Source: Shigella phage vB_SflM_004. Taken from it: a stretch of 64,000 nt of DNA. The stretch lies in sequence record MK295205. One strand, given 5' to 3'. The first letter of the stretch is position 1; every line of letters starts with the position of its first letter. The notes under the pieces were generated by a model. That model had not been told where the DNA came from, did not search any database, and was given only the letters and a program-made list of their open reading frames with translations. This document shows, piece by piece, positions 27,508 through 61,619 of the stretch. Position numbers and translations under genes: made by a program.

Positions 27508-28114
27508 ATGATAAACACAGATGGTCACAAGTCTGTTCAGTTATTGCTTGATGGTAAAGGCTACCAAGCTAACCGTCTAGCAATACTATATGTGGATGGA
27601 TACCTGCCTGATAAAACCTTAGAGCGTAATGCTGAACAGCAAGCTCCAGGTTGACCATAAGAATGGAGATGGTTGGGACAATAGGTCCAAGATAAGTCAT
27701 AAGAAATATTTGAAGTTCCCTGCTGACGCTCAACTTAAATTTAAGGGTTTCGTTGCAGGATTTCAAGAGATGCTGACTCAGAAAGCTTTTACAGCATATT
27801 CTCGTGAGAACACGGTATACAACATTCCTATAGAGTTGATTCCTGATGTTCTTCTTATGCTGAAACTGCACAAAGATGTTGAGGATTTCGATGGTGAGAT
27901 TTATGCTCATGGTTGGGACTTAGAAGATATTGTTTCGATGATTAAGAATGCTGACAATCCAGACCGTCACCTTCTTAAATTCTACTGGTATGATATCTGT
28001 GACAAGACTAAATCTTGGCCTGAGCGTCGTGAAGTTTCACCATTGTACAGCTTCACAAAACTCTTGCAATCGGTCAAGAAAGAAAACTCCTTCAACGAGT
28101 GTTGTCACCGTTAA
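27508..28114 (+). pseudogene. disrupted HNH-type endonuclease
   Basis: N-terminal fragment (GYQANRLAILYVDGYLPDKT) in one frame and HNH motif VDHKNGDGWDNR in another; junction coincides with a 25-bp fragment also present near 45760. Confidence 0.4.
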
Positions 28115-28137
28115 TACTCCGGGATTAAGCAAGATGC

Positions 28138-28147
28138 ACGGGGGGGG
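28138..28147. repeat. G10 homopolymer
   Basis: cacggggggggggtt; ten consecutive G in an otherwise AT-rich intergenic stretch. Confidence 0.8.
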
Positions 28148-28494
28148 GGTTAAATTAAAGTAACTGGTGTCAAAACTGATAAACGTGGTCATGGTAAGTT
28201 CGTTGTAGAGACTCTTCCTAACGTCCCTATCTGGGTTGCCAAAAGGTGTACAGAAGATAAGTAAAAGCCCTGAAGAGTTTATCGGGAAACCTTTAACTGT
28301 TCAGTTCCAGAAGATGAGTTTCGAGCAATGATACGTTTATTATCATTGGCTTACTTCACAAGTAAACTCTTAAGTATAACATACAAAGCCAAGGTAAAAA
28401 CTATCATCTTGGTATGTTTGACACACCGTAACTGACTTAGAAAATTTGGTGAGTATACTGAGCATCATAAACCAACGGGTACTCACCAACATCA

Positions 28495-45610: not shown

Positions 45611-45885
45611 AATGACAATACTGTACAAACAAAATAAAGATGGCTCTTTTAACATCTGGTCATGTACTGCTGTAGGTGACAAGGTTATTACAACCTCGGT
45701 AAAGAAAATGGCAAGATGAAGAGTATACAGCAGAACCTAAAAACATCGGTAAAAAGAATGAGCGTAACGCTGAACAGCAAGCTCTCTTTGAAGTTGCTGC
45801 TAAGTATAAAAAGCAGGTTGACCGCTAAGATTGCAAAAGACCGTACTGGAGTACTCAAAGGTGAACGTATTGATATTCTGGAGTT
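45540..45885. repeat. chain of short fragments copied in order from loci at 49420-51960 and 40640
   Basis: exact or near-exact 23-50-nt matches to 49420-49470, 49725-49750, 50105-50135, 51185-51235, 51428-51455, 51925-51958, 40640-40695, in the same order. Confidence 0.7.
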
Positions 45886-51077: not shown

Positions 51078-51414
51078 GCTCCACATCGTTGTTTATAAGA
51101 ATTTCGCAGATATACAAGAAGCCCTGTCATCAAAACTTGACAGGTCTTATCAAAGACTCTTTGTGATGTTTGACATGGTTGACGGTAAAGAAAATGGCAA
51201 GATGATGTTTGAAGAGTATACAGCAGAACCTAAAAGCCAAGACTCGGTGACAATCTTCGTAAAACATGATTTGTCATCTAAGAACATTGGTCTGCTGGAG
51301 TTCTATATCTTTAAAGCTACAGGTATGCGTGGCGAAAACATAAAAGTGGACTCTATAGAGGTTTTTGAGAAACCTAACACACCACTTAAAAAGTATTTAG
51401 TGAGGAAGTTATAG
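51064..51414 (+). CDS. hypothetical protein
   Basis: internal ATG (MQMLKLHIVV). Confidence 0.4.
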   Translation: MQMLKLHIVVYKNFADIQEALSSKLDRSYQRLFVMFDMVDGKENGKMMFEEYTAEPKSQDSVTIFVKHDLSSKNIGLLEFYIFKATGMRGENIKVDSIEVFEKPNTPLKKYLVRKL

Positions 51415-52922: not shown

Positions 52923-53309
52923 ATGATTTACGAAGATTCAAGAGACCAGATTTCTTATGAGAAATCAAGACACCATGTATCTTTCAAGATTGTGAAAGCA
53001 AATGGTGAAGAAGGAACTATTTCACACTTCGGAGGTGAAAATTGGTTTGCGCATGATGCTGCAAAGGTTAGCCATGCAAAGTATCTGAAGGCTTTCTACA
53101 GAGACTTCCCTGCTGATTACAACGAGCTTATCAATCTGGAAAATAAATGTAGAAGTGCTGAGCATAATACAAGAGGGTGGGCAGGGATAGCAATCATGTT
53201 ATCTGTATTCCTTGCTATGATTTGTGTAATCTCCTTCGGTGGCATGTACATGCAGGATTTAACGTTTAATCAAGCTCAACCGAAACTTGATGGTGTCCGA
53301 TTCCAATAG
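52923..53309 (+). CDS. hypothetical membrane protein
   Basis: 128 aa with C-terminal transmembrane segment GWAGIAIMLSVFLAMICVISFGGMYM. Confidence 0.45.
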   Translation: MIYEDSRDQISYEKSRHHVSFKIVKANGEEGTISHFGGENWFAHDAAKVSHAKYLKAFYRDFPADYNELINLENKCRSAEHNTRGWAGIAIMLSVFLAMICVISFGGMYMQDLTFNQAQPKLDGVRFQ

Positions 53310-54959: not shown

Positions 54960-55327
54960 TTATGGGACACCTACTGAAGAAGAGTTGGAAGAACTTAACA
55001 GATATGGTTCCCCATCTGAAGAGGAAGAGAAAGAACTCCGAAGAATGGGAAGCAATTACTAAGAAATGTTTTAAGGATTTGATAGAGATGAAAAAGTTTA
55101 ACTTAAAAGAAGTTGAAGGTAACTACTTAGTACTTGACTGGGGTGATATTCGGGAAGCACTCTCCGAAGAAAATCTTGACTGGTTCGAACAAATTATCGT
55201 TAATCGACTTAAGATGGAACGAGAAGATTCAGGTAAAGAGCCACTTGAAGGTATCTTTGTCAAGAAATCTTATCCGTTCTTTGAAGATACTTTGAAGAGA
55301 GATTTATGCTCATGGGTGGGACTGTAA
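54956..55327 (+). CDS. hypothetical protein
   Basis: 123-aa ORF. Confidence 0.4.
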   Translation: MIMGHLLKKSWKNLTDMVPHLKRKRKNSEEWEAITKKCFKDLIEMKKFNLKEVEGNYLVLDWGDIREALSEENLDWFEQIIVNRLKMEREDSGKEPLEGIFVKKSYPFFEDTLKRDLCSWVGL

Positions 55328-55679
55328 AGAGTTCTCTATGATTTCTCTTGGTGGACAACAAATGCTGGTTATAGAAGATATTGTCTCTAAACCAACAAAG
55401 GTGTTTGTATCAAGGTCACAGGTAAAGAAGAATTTGTTGAATATGACATACTCAGACACATTATAGATGGTTTGGGTGTTGTACAAAAATGAAGACAATT
55501 CTGACAGACACTTGCTCAAGTTTTACGATTCAGGTAAGAGAACGTCATAGTGGGTTCACACACTTCTTCCAGACTTCTAAAACTTCATTGCAAGCCATGC
55601 TTAGTGAATTGATGTAAGACTATACAGCCCCTTAAAATGGATTCGATAGAATCTATCTCATAGGGGCTTTTTATTGAGT

Positions 55680-57300
55680 AAATTTACGAAATTTATAATT
55701 TTTATAAAATTTGGGATTCACTCCGTTCATCTTGGGTCACCATGATATTGGTACGATATCTGTGACAGTACTAAGACATGGCCTGAGCGTAGTCTCTATA
55801 TAGTATTATATAGTATCTATATACTAAACACTCTTCTAACAAGCCCTCTTAACAACCTATACAATCACCTTAATAACCTCTTCCTAGCCCCTTAGAAGCC
55901 CCTATACTCATCTTAATCTCTAGGTAAACGATAGTACCCTATATAGCAGAATCACTAGATATTATTGAGACTTATATAGACTGTTATATAGCACTAAACA
56001 GGTATTCCCTGTAAAGGCTTATCCTACAAGGTCTAACACGGTACTAACAAGGTCTCTTATAAGCCTGTTAATTCCTGTTTTATATAAGATAGTGTATAGA
56101 TAGTTATTCAGAATTATAAAATTTTTATAAAATAGACTAGGTAGGTCACCATTGAATGACTTTAGAGACGGGAAAAATATCTGTCTAGTTGATTCGGTAG
56201 AATCTACCTCATGATGTATATCTGCTTGGTAGCCCTTAACAGCCCTGTAAAGTTGTTCCTGTTAAGTCTCGAAATATCATTAACAATCTCTTAACAACTC
56301 TTCCAAGTTCGTTCAGAGTTCTTAACAGTCTCTTAACAGAACTAACAAGAGCTTAACAAGTCCTTAACAGTCAATACATAGTCTTTACAGAGGCTTAACA
56401 GATGACTAACAAGTTGCTAAATAGTAAATTCTTGGGAAGAGTTTGATGAAGCTCATGATAAGTGGGTTAACAAGTTCTAAACCTTTTTAACAAGCTATTA
56501 ACATGGTCACTATCTCTTGGTCTATAGTTCCCTTCCCTTCTTAGTGATTCTCTATAAAGCCCTCTTAAAAGCTCTCTGTAGCTCTGTATAGCCTCTTCTA
56601 AGATTCTCCCTAGTAACTACACCCCAACTACCTGTATAGCTCTTTATAGGGCTTTCTAGAGGCTAAGTTTGAAGGTGCAATGTACCGTTCAATCTCTGAA
56701 GAATCTTTCTACGAGGATTTAACAAGGGGCTAACAAGTCTCTAATAAGCATAACTATGTTGTCACCGTTCATACTTCTTGATTAAACACAAGAAGATGCA
56801 CACTTTTACGTTACTTTTAAGCATCTTTTACGTTACTTTTAAGCTCTTTTTAGACTCCATAGAAGAGTTTAAAGTGACTATCAAGCCCCTGTTTAACCAT
56901 TCACAAGATTCTATCCAGCTTATAAGCTTATACCCTTATAAGATTCTTTTAAGGCTCTAGAAAGCTCTATAAAGGGCTTTTAAGAGTAGGTTAATATGAT
57001 TGCTTAAGATGAGATGATAAGCCCGTATAGAGCGTTATAGAGCGTTTTAGAGATTGCCCTTCCCTTTCGGGTTATGGGCTTATATTTAAGTTGATTTGAT
57101 AAGAGGATATAGAGTAAGCTATAGAGTTATTGTTCTAAATGTATGAGATAGGTTCTATCAAGGTAACTCATTACCTGAATCACTATCGAATCAATGGTAT
57201 GAGTCTAACTTGTTAGATGAATCGTTCAAGATTCTAGGAAGGGTTTAGATAGACGTTAAAAAGCCCCATCTAAGGGGCTGTAAAGGTGTCAAGACCGATA
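55680..57300. repeat. 1.6-kb non-coding region dense in short repeated words
   Basis: no ORF of 60 codons or more on either strand for ~1.2 kb; more than 15 copies of CTTAACA(A/G)-type words, clusters of TATATAG/TATAAAG, 20-bp direct repeat ttacgttacttttaagc x2, paired aatttataatttttataaaat motifs about 420 bp apart. Confidence 0.7.
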
Positions 57301-57318
57301 AGCCGTTGCGGCGACTTG

Positions 57319-57570
57319 TTAGTTATTGAAGCCGTCAACTTCATAGTAAAGCGTGATAAGAGAATCACCCCAATAGTAAGAGGATTTGCCATCCTTTAAG
57401 ACTTCTTGTTTTACTTCTTTCCAGAACCACTCAGATTGATTGTGGTCATGGCAAGTTCGTTGTAGAGACATATCAACCATGCCAAAAACATCGCCAGTTC
57501 CAACCATATCAAATTTAACATCTAATACATGGAAGCCAAAATTGTTAACAGTTGCGTGGATAGTAGCCAT
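57319..57570 (-). CDS. hypothetical small protein
   Basis: 83 aa; preceded by conserved leader element. Confidence 0.45.
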   Translation of the reverse strand: MATIHATVNNFGFHVLDVKFDMVGTGDVFGMVDMSLQRTCHDHNQSEWFWKEVKQEVLKDGKSSYYWGDSLITLYYEVDGFNN

Positions 57571-57640
57571 TTTCAGATTCTCCAGTTTAGGATTGTTTAG
57601 GTTCTAAATAGTAGGGGCTTTTACACCCCTTGTCAACACT
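57571..57640 (-). promoter_or_regulatory. conserved leader element (SD-containing), copy 1
   Basis: minus-strand ...AACAATCCTAAACTGGAGAATCTGAAAATG. Confidence 0.55.
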
Positions 57641-57936
57641 TATTAGATAACTTTCTTATAAGAGTTACCAGATAAGATATAGTTAGTAACTGAGTGATTT
57701 AGTAAGTCTACACCAGTGATAACTACCGTTTCTTCATTTTTTCTTTCTTCGTGCTCTTTTTTCATCTCTTCCTAACGTCTAGCACCAAATTTACTAATCA
57801 TACGCTGTTCAAAATTCATCTTTCTAGTCTCCAGTTTAGGAATTTAGGTTAGTGGGGAAGTCTCCCTCCCCGTTGAAAGTAATATTAATTCATTGCGGCG
57901 TATGTTGCAAGTCTTTTGTAGATGTCTCATGGAAGA

Positions 57937-58149
57937 CTACTCATGAGAAGAAACAGTATACTTTACAATTGCTTCAGATTTAGTTAGACCAAAATGGCTT
58001 ACGATTTCACCATTCATGAATCCAACTACCTCATAAGATTCTGCGATGATTTCCCCGTTAAACCAGTCACTTTCTATACGTTTGCAAAGTTGGATATCTT
58101 CTTTGTCAGTACCAATCTGTAACAGGATAGTGATTTCTGCGTTATTCAT
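57937..58149 (-). CDS. hypothetical small protein
   Basis: 70 aa. Confidence 0.45.
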   Translation of the reverse strand: MNNAEITILLQIGTDKEDIQLCKRIESDWFNGEIIAESYEVVGFMNGEIVSHFGLTKSEAIVKYTVSSHE

Positions 58150-58214
58150 TTCATAACTCCAGTTTAGGACTTTATTTAGTGGGGAAGGTTATTCCCTCCC
58201 CGTTGATGAGTACT
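58150..58214 (-). promoter_or_regulatory. conserved promoter/leader element, copy
   Basis: minus strand: TTGACG, 17 nt, TAAAGT, then hairpin CGGGGAGGGA..TCCCC, then CCTAAACTGGAG SD region and ATG. Confidence 0.55.
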
Positions 58215-58742
58215 TTATAGAGTTCTGATGATTTCGTCAAGCTCTTTTTCCATATCTTTTACAGATTTTTCGTGTAGTTTAATCATATCATTCAATGCTT
58301 GCCCTAACTGTAAGTTAAAATCACTGTCTTTTGTCTCGCTTAGATAGATGTTTTCTACGTCGTAAAGCTTGCAAGGGTGGCAACCTGTACCCATCGCCAT
58401 AATCCCATGTGCCAACGGCATGATATACATGTTATGGGACTTGATAGAGCGCTCATAAGCCATTTTAAAGCGGTTTAACTCTTCTTTTGATGATTTGATG
58501 CAATGTTCACAAAGTTCTGCGACTAGTGCCATAAAATCAGGGAGGATTGTTGCAACAGCTTGCATAAAGTTTTCTGCTGTTACTACCTTAACGTTTTGGC
58601 GATGTACATAATACTTTTTATCTTGTCCCTTAGTGACAACAGCAAACAATTTATCGTTGCAACGAAATTCGAAAGTGTCTTTTACAGGTTTAGTCATTAC
58701 AGCATTAGAGCGGATATGGTTGATTGCTTGAAACTTATTCAT
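58215..58742 (-). CDS. hypothetical protein
   Basis: 175-aa ORF. Confidence 0.45.
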   Translation of the reverse strand: MNKFQAINHIRSNAVMTKPVKDTFEFRCNDKLFAVVTKGQDKKYYVHRQNVKVVTAENFMQAVATILPDFMALVAELCEHCIKSSKEELNRFKMAYERSIKSHNMYIMPLAHGIMAMGTGCHPCKLYDVENIYLSETKDSDFNLQLGQALNDMIKLHEKSVKDMEKELDEIIRTL

Positions 58743-58807
58743 TTTAGATTCTCCAGTTTAGGAATTTTGTTTTAGTGGGGAAGTCTCCCTCCCCGTTGAT
58801 GAATACT
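58743..58807 (-). promoter_or_regulatory. conserved promoter/leader element, copy
   Basis: minus strand: TTGCAA, 17 nt, TAAAGT, hairpin GGGGAGGGAGACTTCCCC, CCTAAACTGGAGAATCTAAAATG. Confidence 0.55.
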
Positions 58808-58948
58808 TTACTTGTTTTGATTCTGTATTGCAAGTAGTTTTTTATCAAAAAGTTTATCTGAGATTTCACCAATGGTGAGCATTGCTAATGGCAACACAAC
58901 AGAAACAATCATACCGCAAAGGATAGGGTTTTTAATGATATCTAACAT
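58808..58948 (-). CDS. small hydrophobic protein (below track cut-off)
   Basis: 46 codons MLDIIKNPILCGMIVSVVLPLAML...; ATG immediately follows the conserved leader. Confidence 0.35.
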   Translation of the reverse strand: MLDIIKNPILCGMIVSVVLPLAMLTIGEISDKLFDKKLLAIQNQNK

Positions 58949-59144
58949 TTAGTGATTCTCCAGTTTAGGAAGTTGCCTTTTGAAGATACTATATAGAATT
59001 GCTTAGTGTCTTGCAAGTACTTTTTTCGCTTATCTATAAAGAATCTTTTAAGTGAATCCCTTTTAGATAAACCCCCTCGAACAAATCTATCAATGTCAAG
59101 GGGTATTGTCAACAGTTTTTTCAAAGATTTTTGTAAGTCATTGA

Positions 59145-59486
59145 TTAGCTTATAAAGATTTTTTCTGGCTTAACGTAGGTTAATGCTTGTTTTTTAAGCA
59201 AATCAGACCAAATCAAAGCGGCAATGTGACTATAGCCCTTTTCTCTTAGTTCCCGCATAGCTTCTTTGCGAGTCTCAAAACGTGTAGCATAGTGTTCAGT
59301 GTTAAGGGTAGTTTTGTTGCCGTCATTGTCAACATGTACAACCTGCATTACTTGGAAAGGGCTTACATCTTCCCCCCTGTTCCATTGCTCAAAGTATTTG
59401 AGGCACTGCATAGGTGTCATTTTGTCGCTAACCTGAGTAGACCAAGACGAATTTTCTTTATCGGTGATAATTGTTACATAGGCCAT
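59145..59486 (-). CDS. hypothetical protein
   Basis: 113 aa. Confidence 0.45.
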   Translation of the reverse strand: MAYVTIITDKENSSWSTQVSDKMTPMQCLKYFEQWNRGEDVSPFQVMQVVHVDNDGNKTTLNTEHYATRFETRKEAMRELREKGYSHIAALIWSDLLKKQALTYVKPEKIFIS

Positions 59487-59571
59487 TTTCAGATTCTCCA
59501 GTTTAGGATTGTTGGTAAAGCTCTTTATCTGGGGCTTAAGATACTAGCTTTTAAACCCCATGTAAAGCACT
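59487..59571 (-). promoter_or_regulatory. conserved leader element, copy
   Basis: CCAACAATCCTAAACTGGAGAATCTGAAAATG with upstream hairpin GGGGTTT..AAGCCCC. Confidence 0.5.
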
Positions 59572-59769
59572 TTAATAAATTCTATCCATCAGATTATTCA
59601 CGGCCATAATTGCATTATCTTTGAAGTGTGGATGACTGCTATTCTGTGAGAATAGTATTTCTCCATTGTATACTATTTTTAGGTCTATCTTTGAACCTTC
59701 CATGTTAAGGTTACACTCTACACCTTTTAAACACCACAAGGTAGAAAGTTTTTGCATCAGTGATAACAT
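59572..59769 (-). CDS. hypothetical small protein
   Basis: 65 aa. Confidence 0.4.
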   Translation of the reverse strand: MLSLMQKLSTLWCLKGVECNLNMEGSKIDLKIVYNGEILFSQNSSHPHFKDNAIMAVNNLMDRIY

Positions 59770-59860
59770 TTTAGATTCTCCAGTTTAGGATTGTTGGTAA
59801 AGCTCTTTATCTGGGGCTTATCTTATCTAACTATAAACCCCATGTAAAGTACTTTATTAG
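59770..59860 (-). promoter_or_regulatory. conserved leader element, copy
   Basis: near-identical to the 59487-59571 copy. Confidence 0.5.
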
Positions 59861-60397
59861 TTATTTGTAGTAATAATATGTAAACTCATTTATCAGGCTT
59901 CCATCCTCATCATTATACTGCTTATGACTAGCCAGATAACCGCCATTAGCTAGAATTTCATCAATCAACTTTTTAGCGTCATCGTTGGGAATCCTAACAG
60001 GTTTACTAAACGGCTGTAAATAGGTACGACGAACATTTGAGAATTTAAAATCAATGGTTTTTACGTTAAGAACTTGCAACATTTTTTGAATCTCCAGTTT
60101 AGGATTGTTGGGATGTTTCCCGTTGATGAATACTTTACTTTCTTGCGCAGTCTTCAAGTGATTCTGGAAAACACCATAATCATGAGTCCTTTTATTTTCT
60201 AACATGACACCTAATTGTGACTCTTGTAAGGCTATAGCTGCTAAAGGGATTCCCCAACCTTTTCCCATCTGTCCTTCGCCATAGTTATATGCTTTTAACA
60301 TATTTACTTTCTGACTGATTGTAAGTTCTGGACAGTCAGATGCTGTAGCTAAATGTGCTGTAAAGAATAAGCACAAACCTAAAACAAATTTCTTCAT
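59861..60397 (-). CDS. secreted protein with lytic transglycosylase-like motif
   Basis: signal peptide MKKFVLGLCLFFTAHLATA; AIALQES...GVFQ resembles SLT-domain catalytic motif; a copy of the conserved leader lies in frame inside the ORF at about 60083-60130. Confidence 0.45.
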   Translation of the reverse strand: MKKFVLGLCLFFTAHLATASDCPELTISQKVNMLKAYNYGEGQMGKGWGIPLAAIALQESQLGVMLENKRTHDYGVFQNHLKTAQESKVFINGKHPNNPKLEIQKMLQVLNVKTIDFKFSNVRRTYLQPFSKPVRIPNDDAKKLIDEILANGGYLASHKQYNDEDGSLINEFTYYYYK

Positions 60398-60458
60398 TTG
60401 CACTCCTATTTTGTTAAACATGCAGACAATTATACATCATCCTGCACATTTTTCAAAT

Positions 60459-60481
60459 AAAAAAGGCTGCCGAAGCAGCCC
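60459..60481 (-). terminator. rho-independent terminator after rIIB
   Basis: minus-strand hairpin GGGCTGC-TTCG-GCAGCC followed by TTTTTT. Confidence 0.65.
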
Positions 60482-60497
60482 TTTAGGAATTTACTTA

Positions 60498-61619
60498 TTA
60501 TACTTCACGTTTACGCTGAGAAATCAGTTCACCAGCAGTCCCTACAACTACATGAAGTGCTTCTGAACCATCCCACTCTTTGATGACTTCACGGCGACTA
60601 TTCACAATCGCTGCAACTTCATAACGTGAAGCTCGCATTTTCATATCGTTGTAGTCAGTTGGTACTGAAACAACATCACGAGGATGAACACGAACTTTCA
60701 GGATAGTGTCACCAGAGAAGCTAGTTACATAGTCCCAAGCCCCAACATGCAGACCCTGAGAGCATGTTACATGACGGTTATTATCAACCATCCAACGTGG
60801 CATCTCAACAATGTTACCCAAATCGTTTGGAACTTTGCAGGTACGAGAGTCAAACAGTTTATCACTACGAGTTGTGACTTTCTTCCAACCGATGATATAA
60901 CCTTCTTCATCAATTTCAACATCAAGGTGTGATACAAAGCCCCAAAGCTGTTCTACAGAGTCTTTTGATGGGTTTTCCATCAGTTTTTCGAAGAATGCAA
61001 TCAGACGGGTAAAGCCTTCATCACCTTTCTTCATCATGTCCAGAATACGGTCTACCAGAGTTGAACGCATTTGAACAGCACCGTAGTACAGGTTATCACC
61101 TTTAATGGTCACAGCACCCTGAGTAAAGTTCTCAATGGATTTGCGAATATTCATCAGTTCAAAGGCTTTCTTGTACTCACCTGATACAACAGCCATAACA
61201 ATTTCAGTGTAGTTAGGGTGAGTTGATTCAACAATCTCTGACTCTGCACCGAAAGTCATGATAACCGAGTCACCAGTAATCATGTATTCAATCTGACTAT
61301 TATTCTGCATTGCTTCGTGCAGAGCATTTACAGGTTCTGCTTTGACTGCTTCTTTAACAGCTTTTGCAACAGGTTTCTGAGTAGCTACCTTTTTAGTTGC
61401 TTTAGCTTTCTTAGCACCCTTTGCAATATCTTTCAAAGTCTTCGCAGGTTTTGCTTTGGTTTTCCCTGTCAGTAAAGTTGCTTCATGACGCTCTACAGCA
61501 CGACCTACAGAACGAGTTGAAGTATTGTACTTCAGAGCAATTGCAGTTTTGGTAAGTTTACCTTCTTTAACCAGTGCGTAGATTTCTGCGTCGATTTGTG
61601 CTTTAGTCTTAGTAGTCAT
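60498..61619 (-). CDS. rIIB: rIIB-like protein
   Basis: colinear similarity to T4 rIIB as recalled: LVDRILDMMKKGDEGF, PRWMVDNNRHVTCSQGLHV, VRVHPRDVVSVPTDYNDMKMR; Lys/Ala-rich linker after N-terminal domain. Confidence 0.8.
   Translation of the reverse strand: MTTKTKAQIDAEIYALVKEGKLTKTAIALKYNTSTRSVGRAVERHEATLLTGKTKAKPAKTLKDIAKGAKKAKATKKVATQKPVAKAVKEAVKAEPVNALHEAMQNNSQIEYMITGDSVIMTFGAESEIVESTHPNYTEIVMAVVSGEYKKAFELMNIRKSIENFTQGAVTIKGDNLYYGAVQMRSTLVDRILDMMKKGDEGFTRLIAFFEKLMENPSKDSVEQLWGFVSHLDVEIDEEGYIIGWKKVTTRSDKLFDSRTCKVPNDLGNIVEMPRWMVDNNRHVTCSQGLHVGAWDYVTSFSGDTILKVRVHPRDVVSVPTDYNDMKMRASRYEVAAIVNSRREVIKEWDGSEALHVVVGTAGELISQRKREV

Follow-up and report, generated by a model that had tools for sequence, protein, structure and literature searches.

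Small minus-strand genes between 57.3 and 60.4 kb of the 64,000-nt stretch of Shigella phage vB_SflM_004 studied here (record MK295205; the whole stretch is called the window), downstream of rIIA and rIIB, are each preceded by a similar leader, and one copy of this leader lies in frame inside a longer open reading frame (ORF), 59861-60397. What do these leaders do, and is the ORF that contains one of them a gene in its own right? The best explanation, to which we give a probability of roughly 70%, is that the leaders are cassettes that act as modular early-gene expression units of the Felix O1 group of phages (Ounavirinae), functionally resembling the promoter-early stem-loops (PeSLs) of T4-type phages, and that the in-frame copy is the normal cassette of a 73-aa gene which has come to stand at a deletion or assembly breakpoint. 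Promoter activity, start sites, the roles of the hairpins and the mechanism of recombination are the parts of this explanation that we infer.

An invariant initiation region precedes each small gene

The 12-mer CCTAAACTGGAG occurs as eight exact copies in the window (0 mismatches), all of them on the minus strand, where 0.41 copies are expected by chance (mean of shuffled sequences) and none of 100 shuffles reached eight. The repeated leader before the small minus-strand genes, first pointed out in an earlier note on this DNA, is thus real. Downstream of every core (8/8), at a distance of 7-9 nt, is the ATG of a small ORF; in 5' to 3' order along the cluster these ORFs have 73, 65, 113, 46, 175, 70, 58 (interrupted) and 83 codons. 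The GGAG of the core reads as the Shine-Dalgarno (SD) sequence of the gene that follows. According to the earlier note, about 30 nt were nearly the same before each gene. What proved common to all eight copies is the 12-nt core and its spacing to the ATG, and nothing more: a longer form, CCAACAAT...AATCTA, is exact only in the copy at 59789 and has one to three mismatches in those at 59507, 60103 and 57591 (copies are designated by the upper coordinate of the core).

Each cassette appears to combine a predicted sigma-70-type promoter, a GGGG...CCCC stem-loop and the invariant translation initiation region, and the cassettes can be sorted by how these parts are arranged. In type A (58762, 58168 and 57840), TTGNNN is followed by a 17-nt spacer, TAAAGT or TAATAT, AYTNNTCAAC and then a GGGGAGGGA...CCCC hairpin; a weaker form of this arrangement, at 60103, has TAAAGT and then GGGAaacaTCCC. 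In type B (59789 and 59507), TAAAGTRC is followed by TTTACA, 17 nt and TAnnnT, with GGGGTTTA...TAAGCCCC lying across the spacer and the -10, and AGATAAAGAGCTTTACC coming next. Type C (57591) consists of TTGACA-17-TACTAT with the hairpin within the spacer, and the copy at 58969 has TTGCAA-17-TATAGT without a hairpin. The suggestion that several copies share a TTGNNN-17-TAAAGT promoter together with a leader hairpin holds in a narrower form, since the hairpin CAACGGGGAGGGA is found in three copies, two of which have TTGNNN-17-TAAAGT and the third TTGCAA-17-TAATAT, whereas the other copies differ in promoter or hairpin. At 58810 and at 58217, the stop codon of the upstream gene is the TAA of TAAAGT, with the SD and the ATG further on.

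Predicted promoters and stem-loops

An independent consensus scan placed minus-strand promoter sites at 59848, 59566, 59016, 58240 and 57636. For the type-B cassettes, alignments of 24 and 38 distinct cassettes were assembled from seven phage genomes and several IMG/VR viral contigs. In these, CTTTACA and the first, second and sixth bases of the -10 (TAnnnT) are invariant and the -35 and -10 stand 17-18 nt apart; the rest of the -10 and the greater part of the spacer are variable. Compared across phages, the cassette at 58969 has a wholly diverged spacer, with both hexamers and the leader kept. The cassettes thus appear to carry their own host sigma-70-type promoters, with transcription predicted to start about 7 nt past the -10 (in type A, for example, at the A of CAACGGGG, and in type B at AGAUAAAG). 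In Felix O1, the cassette-preceded ORFs 16, 20, 21 and 22 were found by RT-PCR to peak at 5 min.

The type-A hairpins have folding energies of -13.4 to -15.2 kcal/mol (z -2.6 to -3.4) and start 2-4 nt from the predicted mRNA 5' end. In type B, the flanking TAAAG-NN-CTTTA boxes pair together and extend an 8-bp stem to a three-helix hairpin of about 60 nt around the whole promoter; RNAalifold returned the same fold as that obtained for the two copies in the window, the energies and z-scores of which are listed in Table 1. The type-C element has a z of only -0.95, and 32 of 200 shuffles fold as well as it does. Across the type-B alignment, 98% of cells are paired; the figure is 94.9% for shuffles and 28-62% for controls with slid partners. 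Compensatory changes in the RNAalifold fold are seen at columns 8/60 (GC to UA or AU) and 22/47 (GC to UA), and a hand-drawn structure gives a third pair with a compensatory change. U-G pairs are present in 30 of the 38 sequences, which favors sense-strand RNA as the paired molecule. We also considered the TAAAG-NN-CTTTA boxes as protein-binding palindromes and rejected this, as the covariation runs from box 1 to box 2 (TAAAT...ATTTA, TAAAA...TTTTA) and so fits one long hairpin. With both the -35 and the -10 inside it, the type-B hairpin could arise only in transcripts that enter from upstream, in which it may be an attenuator, an insulator or a processing site.

The cassettes are conserved across genera of the Ounavirinae

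The window belongs to a Mooglevirus-like member of the Ounavirinae, with its best matches in Mooglevirus and Suspvirus (Sf13, Moogle/Mijalis, Mordin and CHB7), and it is colinear with Sf13 and Moogle at 72-100% nucleotide identity. In Sf13 there are 18 exact cores, all before the small genes gp39-gp57. A 91-nt type-B query found matches in 287 phage records, almost all of enterobacterial Felix O1-like phages and with several copies each. Felix O1 and wV8 have both cassette types, with the core variants CCTAAATTGGAG and CCTTAAACTAGGAG, and the Kolesnikviruses of Erwinia and Hafnia share the architecture, their cores including CCCTTATAAAGGAA and CCTTAAACAGGAA.

In favor of the copies being recent local duplications of one upstream region, without function, several of them are identical over 26-90 nt within one genome. 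Against this, the architecture is kept across genera at diverged sequence (Felix O1, wV8, Kolesnikvirus) and in the 287 records, and invariant promoter positions stand beside variable neighbors. That the cassettes are retained in several genera of the Ounavirinae, with Felix O1, wV8 and phages of Erwinia and Hafnia among their carriers, therefore refutes the duplication account, which was the outcome that the earlier note had named as fatal to its proposal; we give it next to no chance of being right.

The repeat family is already known, without an explained function, and the observation itself is not new. Citrobacter phage Mordin was reported to have a 26-bp repeat with the consensus CCAACAATCCTAAACTGGAGAATCTA before eight genes, which was likened to start-associated sequences (Guan et al., 2015, PMC4611695); 57-bp and 39-bp direct repeats were listed for Felix O1 (Whichard et al., 2010, PMC3185647), and the wV8 GenBank record annotates DR_1 to DR_9 there. 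These are the same element in the same place, before small hypothetical genes downstream of rIIA/rIIB. The Mordin consensus matches the copy at 59789 in 26/26 positions and those at 59507, 60103 and 57591 with one to three mismatches, the 57-bp repeat of Felix O1 is the type-B cassette, and its 39-bp repeat is a type-A promoter. Those reports list the repeats, and their role has been given as unknown since 2010-2015; what is added here is the assignment of promoters, the 60-nt promoter hairpin, a mini-hairpin that pairs with the SD, the swapping of cassettes and the insertions and deletions (indels) bounded by cores. As a side observation, the start of Felix O1 ORF19 (9983), placed at an ATG within the hairpin loop GGGGAGGGAATGACCTTCCC, is likely a misannotation.

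Cassettes as probable exchangeable single-gene modules

Gene order is conserved among these phages, which differ by single units of a gene and its cassette. Three indels between natural genomes are each bounded by two cores. The first is a 58-codon gene with a type-C promoter that is present in Silverhawkium (and the window) and not in Sf13. The second and third distinguish Mijalis from Sf13: a 73-aa and a 65-aa gene with two type-B cassettes, in one case, and a 46-aa gene with a type-A cassette, in the other, are missing from Mijalis. Orthologous genes have a type-A cassette in one phage and a type-B or type-C cassette in another, and core variants assort independently of promoter type. Within the window, the closest relative changes along the cluster from Sf13/CHB7 to Mijalis, to Silverhawkium, and then to Sf13.

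As modular expression units, the cassettes would work as follows. Each small gene would be expressed from a host sigma-70-type promoter of its own and would have a stem-loop held closed by GGGG...CCCC as well as one common initiation region, namely CCUAAACU with the SD GGAG, 7-9 A/U-rich nt and the AUG. The type-A hairpin, near the 5' end of the mRNA, may serve as a 5' stabilizer. The type-B or type-C hairpin, which encloses the promoter and is expected in read-through RNA only, may insulate, attenuate or process the transcript. Through the near-identical flanks of 12-90 bp on every gene, homologous recombination could add, remove and swap single-gene modules, and the same recombination between cassettes would keep the copies alike.

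Several points weigh against this account. The mosaic pattern of the window itself counts for less than the differences seen between natural genomes, because the window sequence is damaged. An exchange between Sf13 and CHB7, seen as an identical block, ends about 115 nt inside the 113-aa gene and not at a cassette, and the cassettes are therefore preferred rather than exclusive crossover points. The compensatory changes in the type-B hairpin are mostly inherited by several copies, so that they come down to about three independent events and give modest covariation support. The same hairpin is without a U-tract, so that it is at best a putative terminator. In the Felix O1 RT-PCR data, ORFs 17, 19 and 23 peak at 25 min and not at 5 min, and a search of the open-access literature found no transcript-end data (transcription start sites or RNA-seq) for any Ounavirinae phage.

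The parallel with PeSLs lies in the order and surroundings of the parts (Arbiol et al., 2010, PMC2839356; Comeau et al., 2014, PMC4122927). In both, an upstream stop codon, a sigma-70-like promoter, a polyG/polyC stem-loop, an SD and a start codon follow one another in that order; the placement of the stem-loop is variable, here after the -10 (type A), across the promoter (type B) or in the spacer (type C); and the element sits before small ORFans in a plastic early region with single-gene indels. The lineage is different, Ounavirinae rather than T4-type (Tevenvirinae-like), and no sequence homology is claimed. The cassettes also have an additional invariant initiation region of 12-26 nt, common to all copies, and they are known from sequence, whereas promoter, terminator and mini-circle activities have been demonstrated for PeSLs. 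The comparison is therefore best taken as one of working alike, not of membership by descent.

A second comparison is with the start-associated sequences (SAS) and extended SAS (ESAS) of Cluster K mycobacteriophages, in which a 13-bp consensus, GGGATAGGAGCCC, stands 3-8 nt before the ATG, an inverted repeat lies upstream of about half of the SAS, and the function of SAS is unknown (Pope et al., 2011, PMC3203893). Both are short, asymmetric, SD-containing repeats in a single orientation before the ATGs of non-structural genes with long upstream gaps, and in both the conservation exceeds what rRNA pairing needs. We treat this as analogy only: GGGATAGGAGCCC is unrelated to CCTAAACTGGAG apart from the SD purines, the host and phage are different, and the inverted repeats of ESAS do not support RNA pairing, whereas the stems of the cassettes covary.

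Most small early genes have such a repeat in front of them in this group of phages, which is widely used in Salmonella typing, biocontrol and therapy. Read as PeSL-like units, the repeats would explain how Felix O1-like phages gain and lose the genes of their early 'ORFan' arm one at a time, and they lead to predictions of start sites, of roles for the hairpins and of a possible common translational switch.

Possible roles of the shared initiation region

Extended pairing of the 31-nt motif with 16S rRNA was considered and rejected. The longest match to E. coli 16S rRNA is a 6-mer, whereas shuffles usually reach 7, and the core is not an rRNA-pairing enhancer because its complementarity to 16S rRNA ends at the 4-nt GGAG. 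A tentative alternative, which is compatible with the modular-unit explanation and could be an addition to it, takes up the shared post-transcriptional control target suggested in the earlier note: the common initiation region would be an operator for translational control or a site of cleavage. In this view the invariant UCC-UAAACU-GGA(G) would fold into a small hairpin and so conceal the SD, and a phage or host RNA-binding protein or endonuclease would use it to shut off all the small early genes together. The positions outside the SD are invariant in 50/50 of the Mooglevirus/Suspvirus copies compared, which come from the window, Sf13, Mordin and CHB7, and Felix O1 and the Erwinia and Hafnia phages retain CCU(U)AAAC. 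Every core variant folds as a hairpin of 3-4 bp that pairs CC(U) with the SD purines (-0.9 to -3.9 kcal/mol). The Felix O1/wV8 variant UCCU-UAAACU-AGGA keeps the pairing through an added U/A pair, and the Erwinia/Hafnia variants CCUU-AUA-AAGG, CCUC-AAA-GAGG and CCUU-AAA-GAGG have UA, CG and UG, respectively, at the same pair. These signs have to be set against the marginal stability of a stem of only 3-4 bp, for which a CC upstream of a GG suffices, and against the homology of the core copies, which makes the counts non-independent. Moreover, recombination or gene conversion between cassettes can account for the identity of the cores without any recognition. No candidate trans-acting factor was identified, and no search for RegA/RegB homologues was made.

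In T4, RegA operators and RegB cleavage sites (GGAG) serve in the shut-off of early mRNAs. The likeness is that a common feature in the initiation regions of many early mRNAs is used for joint shut-off, and that the SD of the cassettes is GGAG; the cassettes differ in being known from their sequence. A more elaborate form of the operator idea, which we consider rather doubtful, is that an Ounavirinae factor reads the core, as an operator or a processing hairpin (UCC-UAAACU-GGA) whose 3' arm contains the SD, for shut-off of the whole set and that the core, jointly with the 60-nt type-B hairpin as a read-through processing or insulation element, makes up an undescribed regulatory system conserved across Ounavirinae genera.

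It is very unlikely that the core acts on DNA, either as an operator or 'stoperator'-like site or as the target of a recombinase or mobile element. The cores do share one orientation, a fixed place downstream of promoters and a restriction to one genome arm, and the relatives encode a Cro/CI-type regulator, Sf13 gp113. However, the core is asymmetric and non-palindromic, and it keeps a fixed distance from the ATG (7-9 nt) while the stretch between it and the promoter is anywhere from about 13 to 40 nt long. The pattern of covariation agrees with pairing in RNA, G-U pairs included, and the cluster is without terminal inverted repeats, target duplications or recombinase genes.

The in-frame copy lies at a breakpoint

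ORF 59861-60397 joins two sequences of different origin. Its upstream side, to 60148, is a gp68-type gene with 100% nucleotide identity to Moogle; this lysozyme-like gene follows rIIB in relatives. Its downstream side, from 60147, consists of the 73-aa gene and its leader, which match Sf13 and CHB7 at 100% identity. In Sf13 the two are separate genes at a distance of about 9 kb, and polynucleotide kinase, the spanins and about 20 other genes lie in the interval. The internal copy had been taken for a degenerate one without the hairpin. This was mistaken, since it keeps a 4-bp hairpin, GGGAaacaTCCC, of -5.2 kcal/mol and is 100% identical to the orthologous leader of Sf13 and CHB7. In the relatives the leader is also open in the frame of the chimera, and for this reason Sf13 gp45 and CHB7 gp115 are annotated from a TTG 26 codons upstream of the cassette ATG, likely a misannotation of their starts.

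The junction 60147/60148 was found in 0/50,697 phage records and in no IMG/VR contig, and the chimeric protein was absent from a search over 153 billion gene positions. The junction removes the -35 of the promoter of the 73-aa gene, which in relatives is TTGACA-17-TAAAGT. Microhomology there amounts to ACTG/TTGA only, with 4 nt unaccounted for, and on that ground a clean cassette-to-cassette crossover at 60147/60148 was rejected.

The earlier note took this ORF for a fusion of two ancestral genes or a gene with an internal start. Two genes are indeed joined, and the ATG at 60082 is the ancestral start, but the ORF is a chimera made at a junction that is in none of the 50,697 phage records, and not an evolved fusion. 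A genuine evolved fusion, or programmed internal initiation, could draw on the frame being open across the junction and on the intact internal SD and ATG. We nevertheless hold either to be very improbable: besides the absence of junction and protein from the records, the N-terminal part ends in the middle of an SLT-like domain, the -35 of the downstream promoter is destroyed by the junction, the open frame of the leader is found in relatives as well, and the window has at least nine other breakpoints and widespread frameshifts. As its junction is one of the many lesions of the window, the fusion is best not taken for an evolved gene. The in-frame copy is accordingly best read as a by-product of a deletion junction of about 9 kb or of an assembly breakpoint in damaged sequence, and the 'fusion ORF' of the window should not be treated as biology.

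State of the window sequence

Compared with Sf13 and Moogle, the window is without terminase, portal, the tRNA block, tape measure and the start of the major capsid gene, the missing blocks ranging from 300 to 10,500 nt. From about 27.5 to 57 kb, most conserved genes switch reading frame, while 1-27 kb and 60.15-64 kb are intact stretches. The region 27500-60150 is heavily damaged, and the sequence is not that of a viable genome. On the map of Sf13, the two window ends lie next to each other, and the window is therefore approximately the whole of a record of about 64 kb.

The DNA ligase gene is shattered over the plus strand (27686-28354, 45612-45825, 51184-51237, 53046-53117, 55746-55790, 56650-56822 and 57915-57959). 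Its body is 52% identical to the ligase of Sf13 and has internal stops, and its first 74 codons lie at a deletion junction. Pieces of 15-24 aa follow in colinear order over 12 kb, with nothing similar in Sf13; we know of no natural process that yields such shattering.

Features of the cluster and neighboring genes

Table 1. Positions of the cores, cassettes, hairpins and associated features in the window.
Feature	Position	Strand	Details
CCTAAACTGGAG core copies, first four	60092-60103, 59778-59789, 59496-59507, 58958-58969	minus	exact match
CCTAAACTGGAG core copies, last four	58751-58762, 58157-58168, 57829-57840, 57580-57591	minus	exact match
Promoter-like site of gp68-type gene	60429-60456	minus	TTGAAA-16-TATAAT; after rIIB terminator 60461-60484
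Chimeric ORF	59861-60397	minus	178 codons: signal peptide and truncated SLT/lysozyme-like N-terminus (aa 1-83), translated leader, 73-aa gene (59861-60082)
Breakpoint	60147-60148	minus	gp68-type gene upstream; leader of 73-aa gene downstream
Remnant type-A cassette, copy 1	60110-60137	minus	-10 TAAAGT (60132-60137); weak hairpin GGGAAACATCCC (60110-60121)
Core copy 1	60092-60103	minus	9-nt spacer to ATG 60082 of 73-aa gene; in frame within chimeric ORF
Type-B cassette, 65-aa gene	59770-59856	minus	TAAAGT box; TTTACA and TAAGAT (59820-59848); core; ATG 59769
Three-helix hairpin of this cassette	59793-59856	minus	-22.3 kcal/mol, z -6.1
Type-B cassette, 113-aa gene	59487-59574	minus	TTTACA-17-TATCTT (59538-59566); core; ATG 59486
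Hairpin of this cassette	59511-59574	minus	-22.7 kcal/mol, z -4.6
Cassette, 46-aa membrane-like gene	58949-59016	minus	TTGCAA-17-TATAGT (58988-59016); no hairpin; ATG 58948
Type-A cassette, 175-aa gene	58743-58833	minus	TTGCAA (58828-58833), 17-nt spacer, TAAAGT (58805-58810)
Type-A hairpin GGGGAGGGAGACTTCCCC, 175-aa gene	58777-58794	minus	core 58751-58762; ATG 58742
Type-A cassette, 70-aa gene	58150-58240	minus	TTGACG-17-TAAAGT (58212-58240); hairpin 58181-58201; ATG 58149
Type-A cassette, 58-codon gene	57820-57910	minus	TTGCAA (57905-57910), 17-nt spacer, TAATAT (57882-57887)
Type-A hairpin, 58-codon gene	57854-57871	minus	core 57829-57840; ATG 57819
Type-C cassette, 83-aa gene	57571-57636	minus	TTGACA-17-TACTAT (57608-57636); spacer hairpin AGGGGTGTAAAAGCCCCT; ATG 57570
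Cluster-closing stem-loop and T-run (AGCCCCttagatGGGGCTTTTT)	57257-57279	minus	read by eye; absent from the list of the independent scan

The position homologous to the stem-loop that closes the cluster is an annotated terminator in Mordin. An Rfam scan of 55000-60700 with E up to 1 gave a single lncRNA match at chance level, and Pfam, run on eight proteins of or next to the cluster, gave a weak SLT match on the chimera and nothing else. For the 175-aa gene (58215-58742, minus strand), the protein of which is 100% identical to its Mijalis counterpart, a precomputed Pfam record lists PF26821 (Phage_T4_Y16F), and at least one early ORFan is therefore common to these and the T4-type phages.

Two genes of the cluster differ from their counterparts in relatives. 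The 58-codon gene (57643-57819, minus strand) has a TAG at codon 16 where Silverhawkium has TGG; it is intact in Silverhawkium, Sf17 and SFPB (57/58 aa identical), and the interrupted form is a pseudogene or a sequence error. The gene at 57937-58149 (minus strand) encodes 70 aa in the window compared with 87 aa in Sf13 and Mordin, has a 3' end unlike that of Sf13 and overlaps the ligase-like fragment 57915-57959 on the opposite strand.

Downstream of the cluster, about 1.6 kb (55600-57300) has no annotated gene in relatives. It contains long inverted repeats and dense short iterated motifs, with CTTAACAAG/CTAACAAG pairs 11 nt apart and CTTTTACGTTACTTTTAAGC in tandem, and looks like an iteron-rich origin or a genome-end region. 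Within the cluster, the intergenic region 58949-59144 (minus strand) is unusually long at 196 nt and contains a second strong promoter-like site, TTGACA-17-TAGATT with a TG (59084-59112), which lies within an inverted repeat, CCCCTTGACA...GAGGGG, and is kept in Sf13 and Mijalis.

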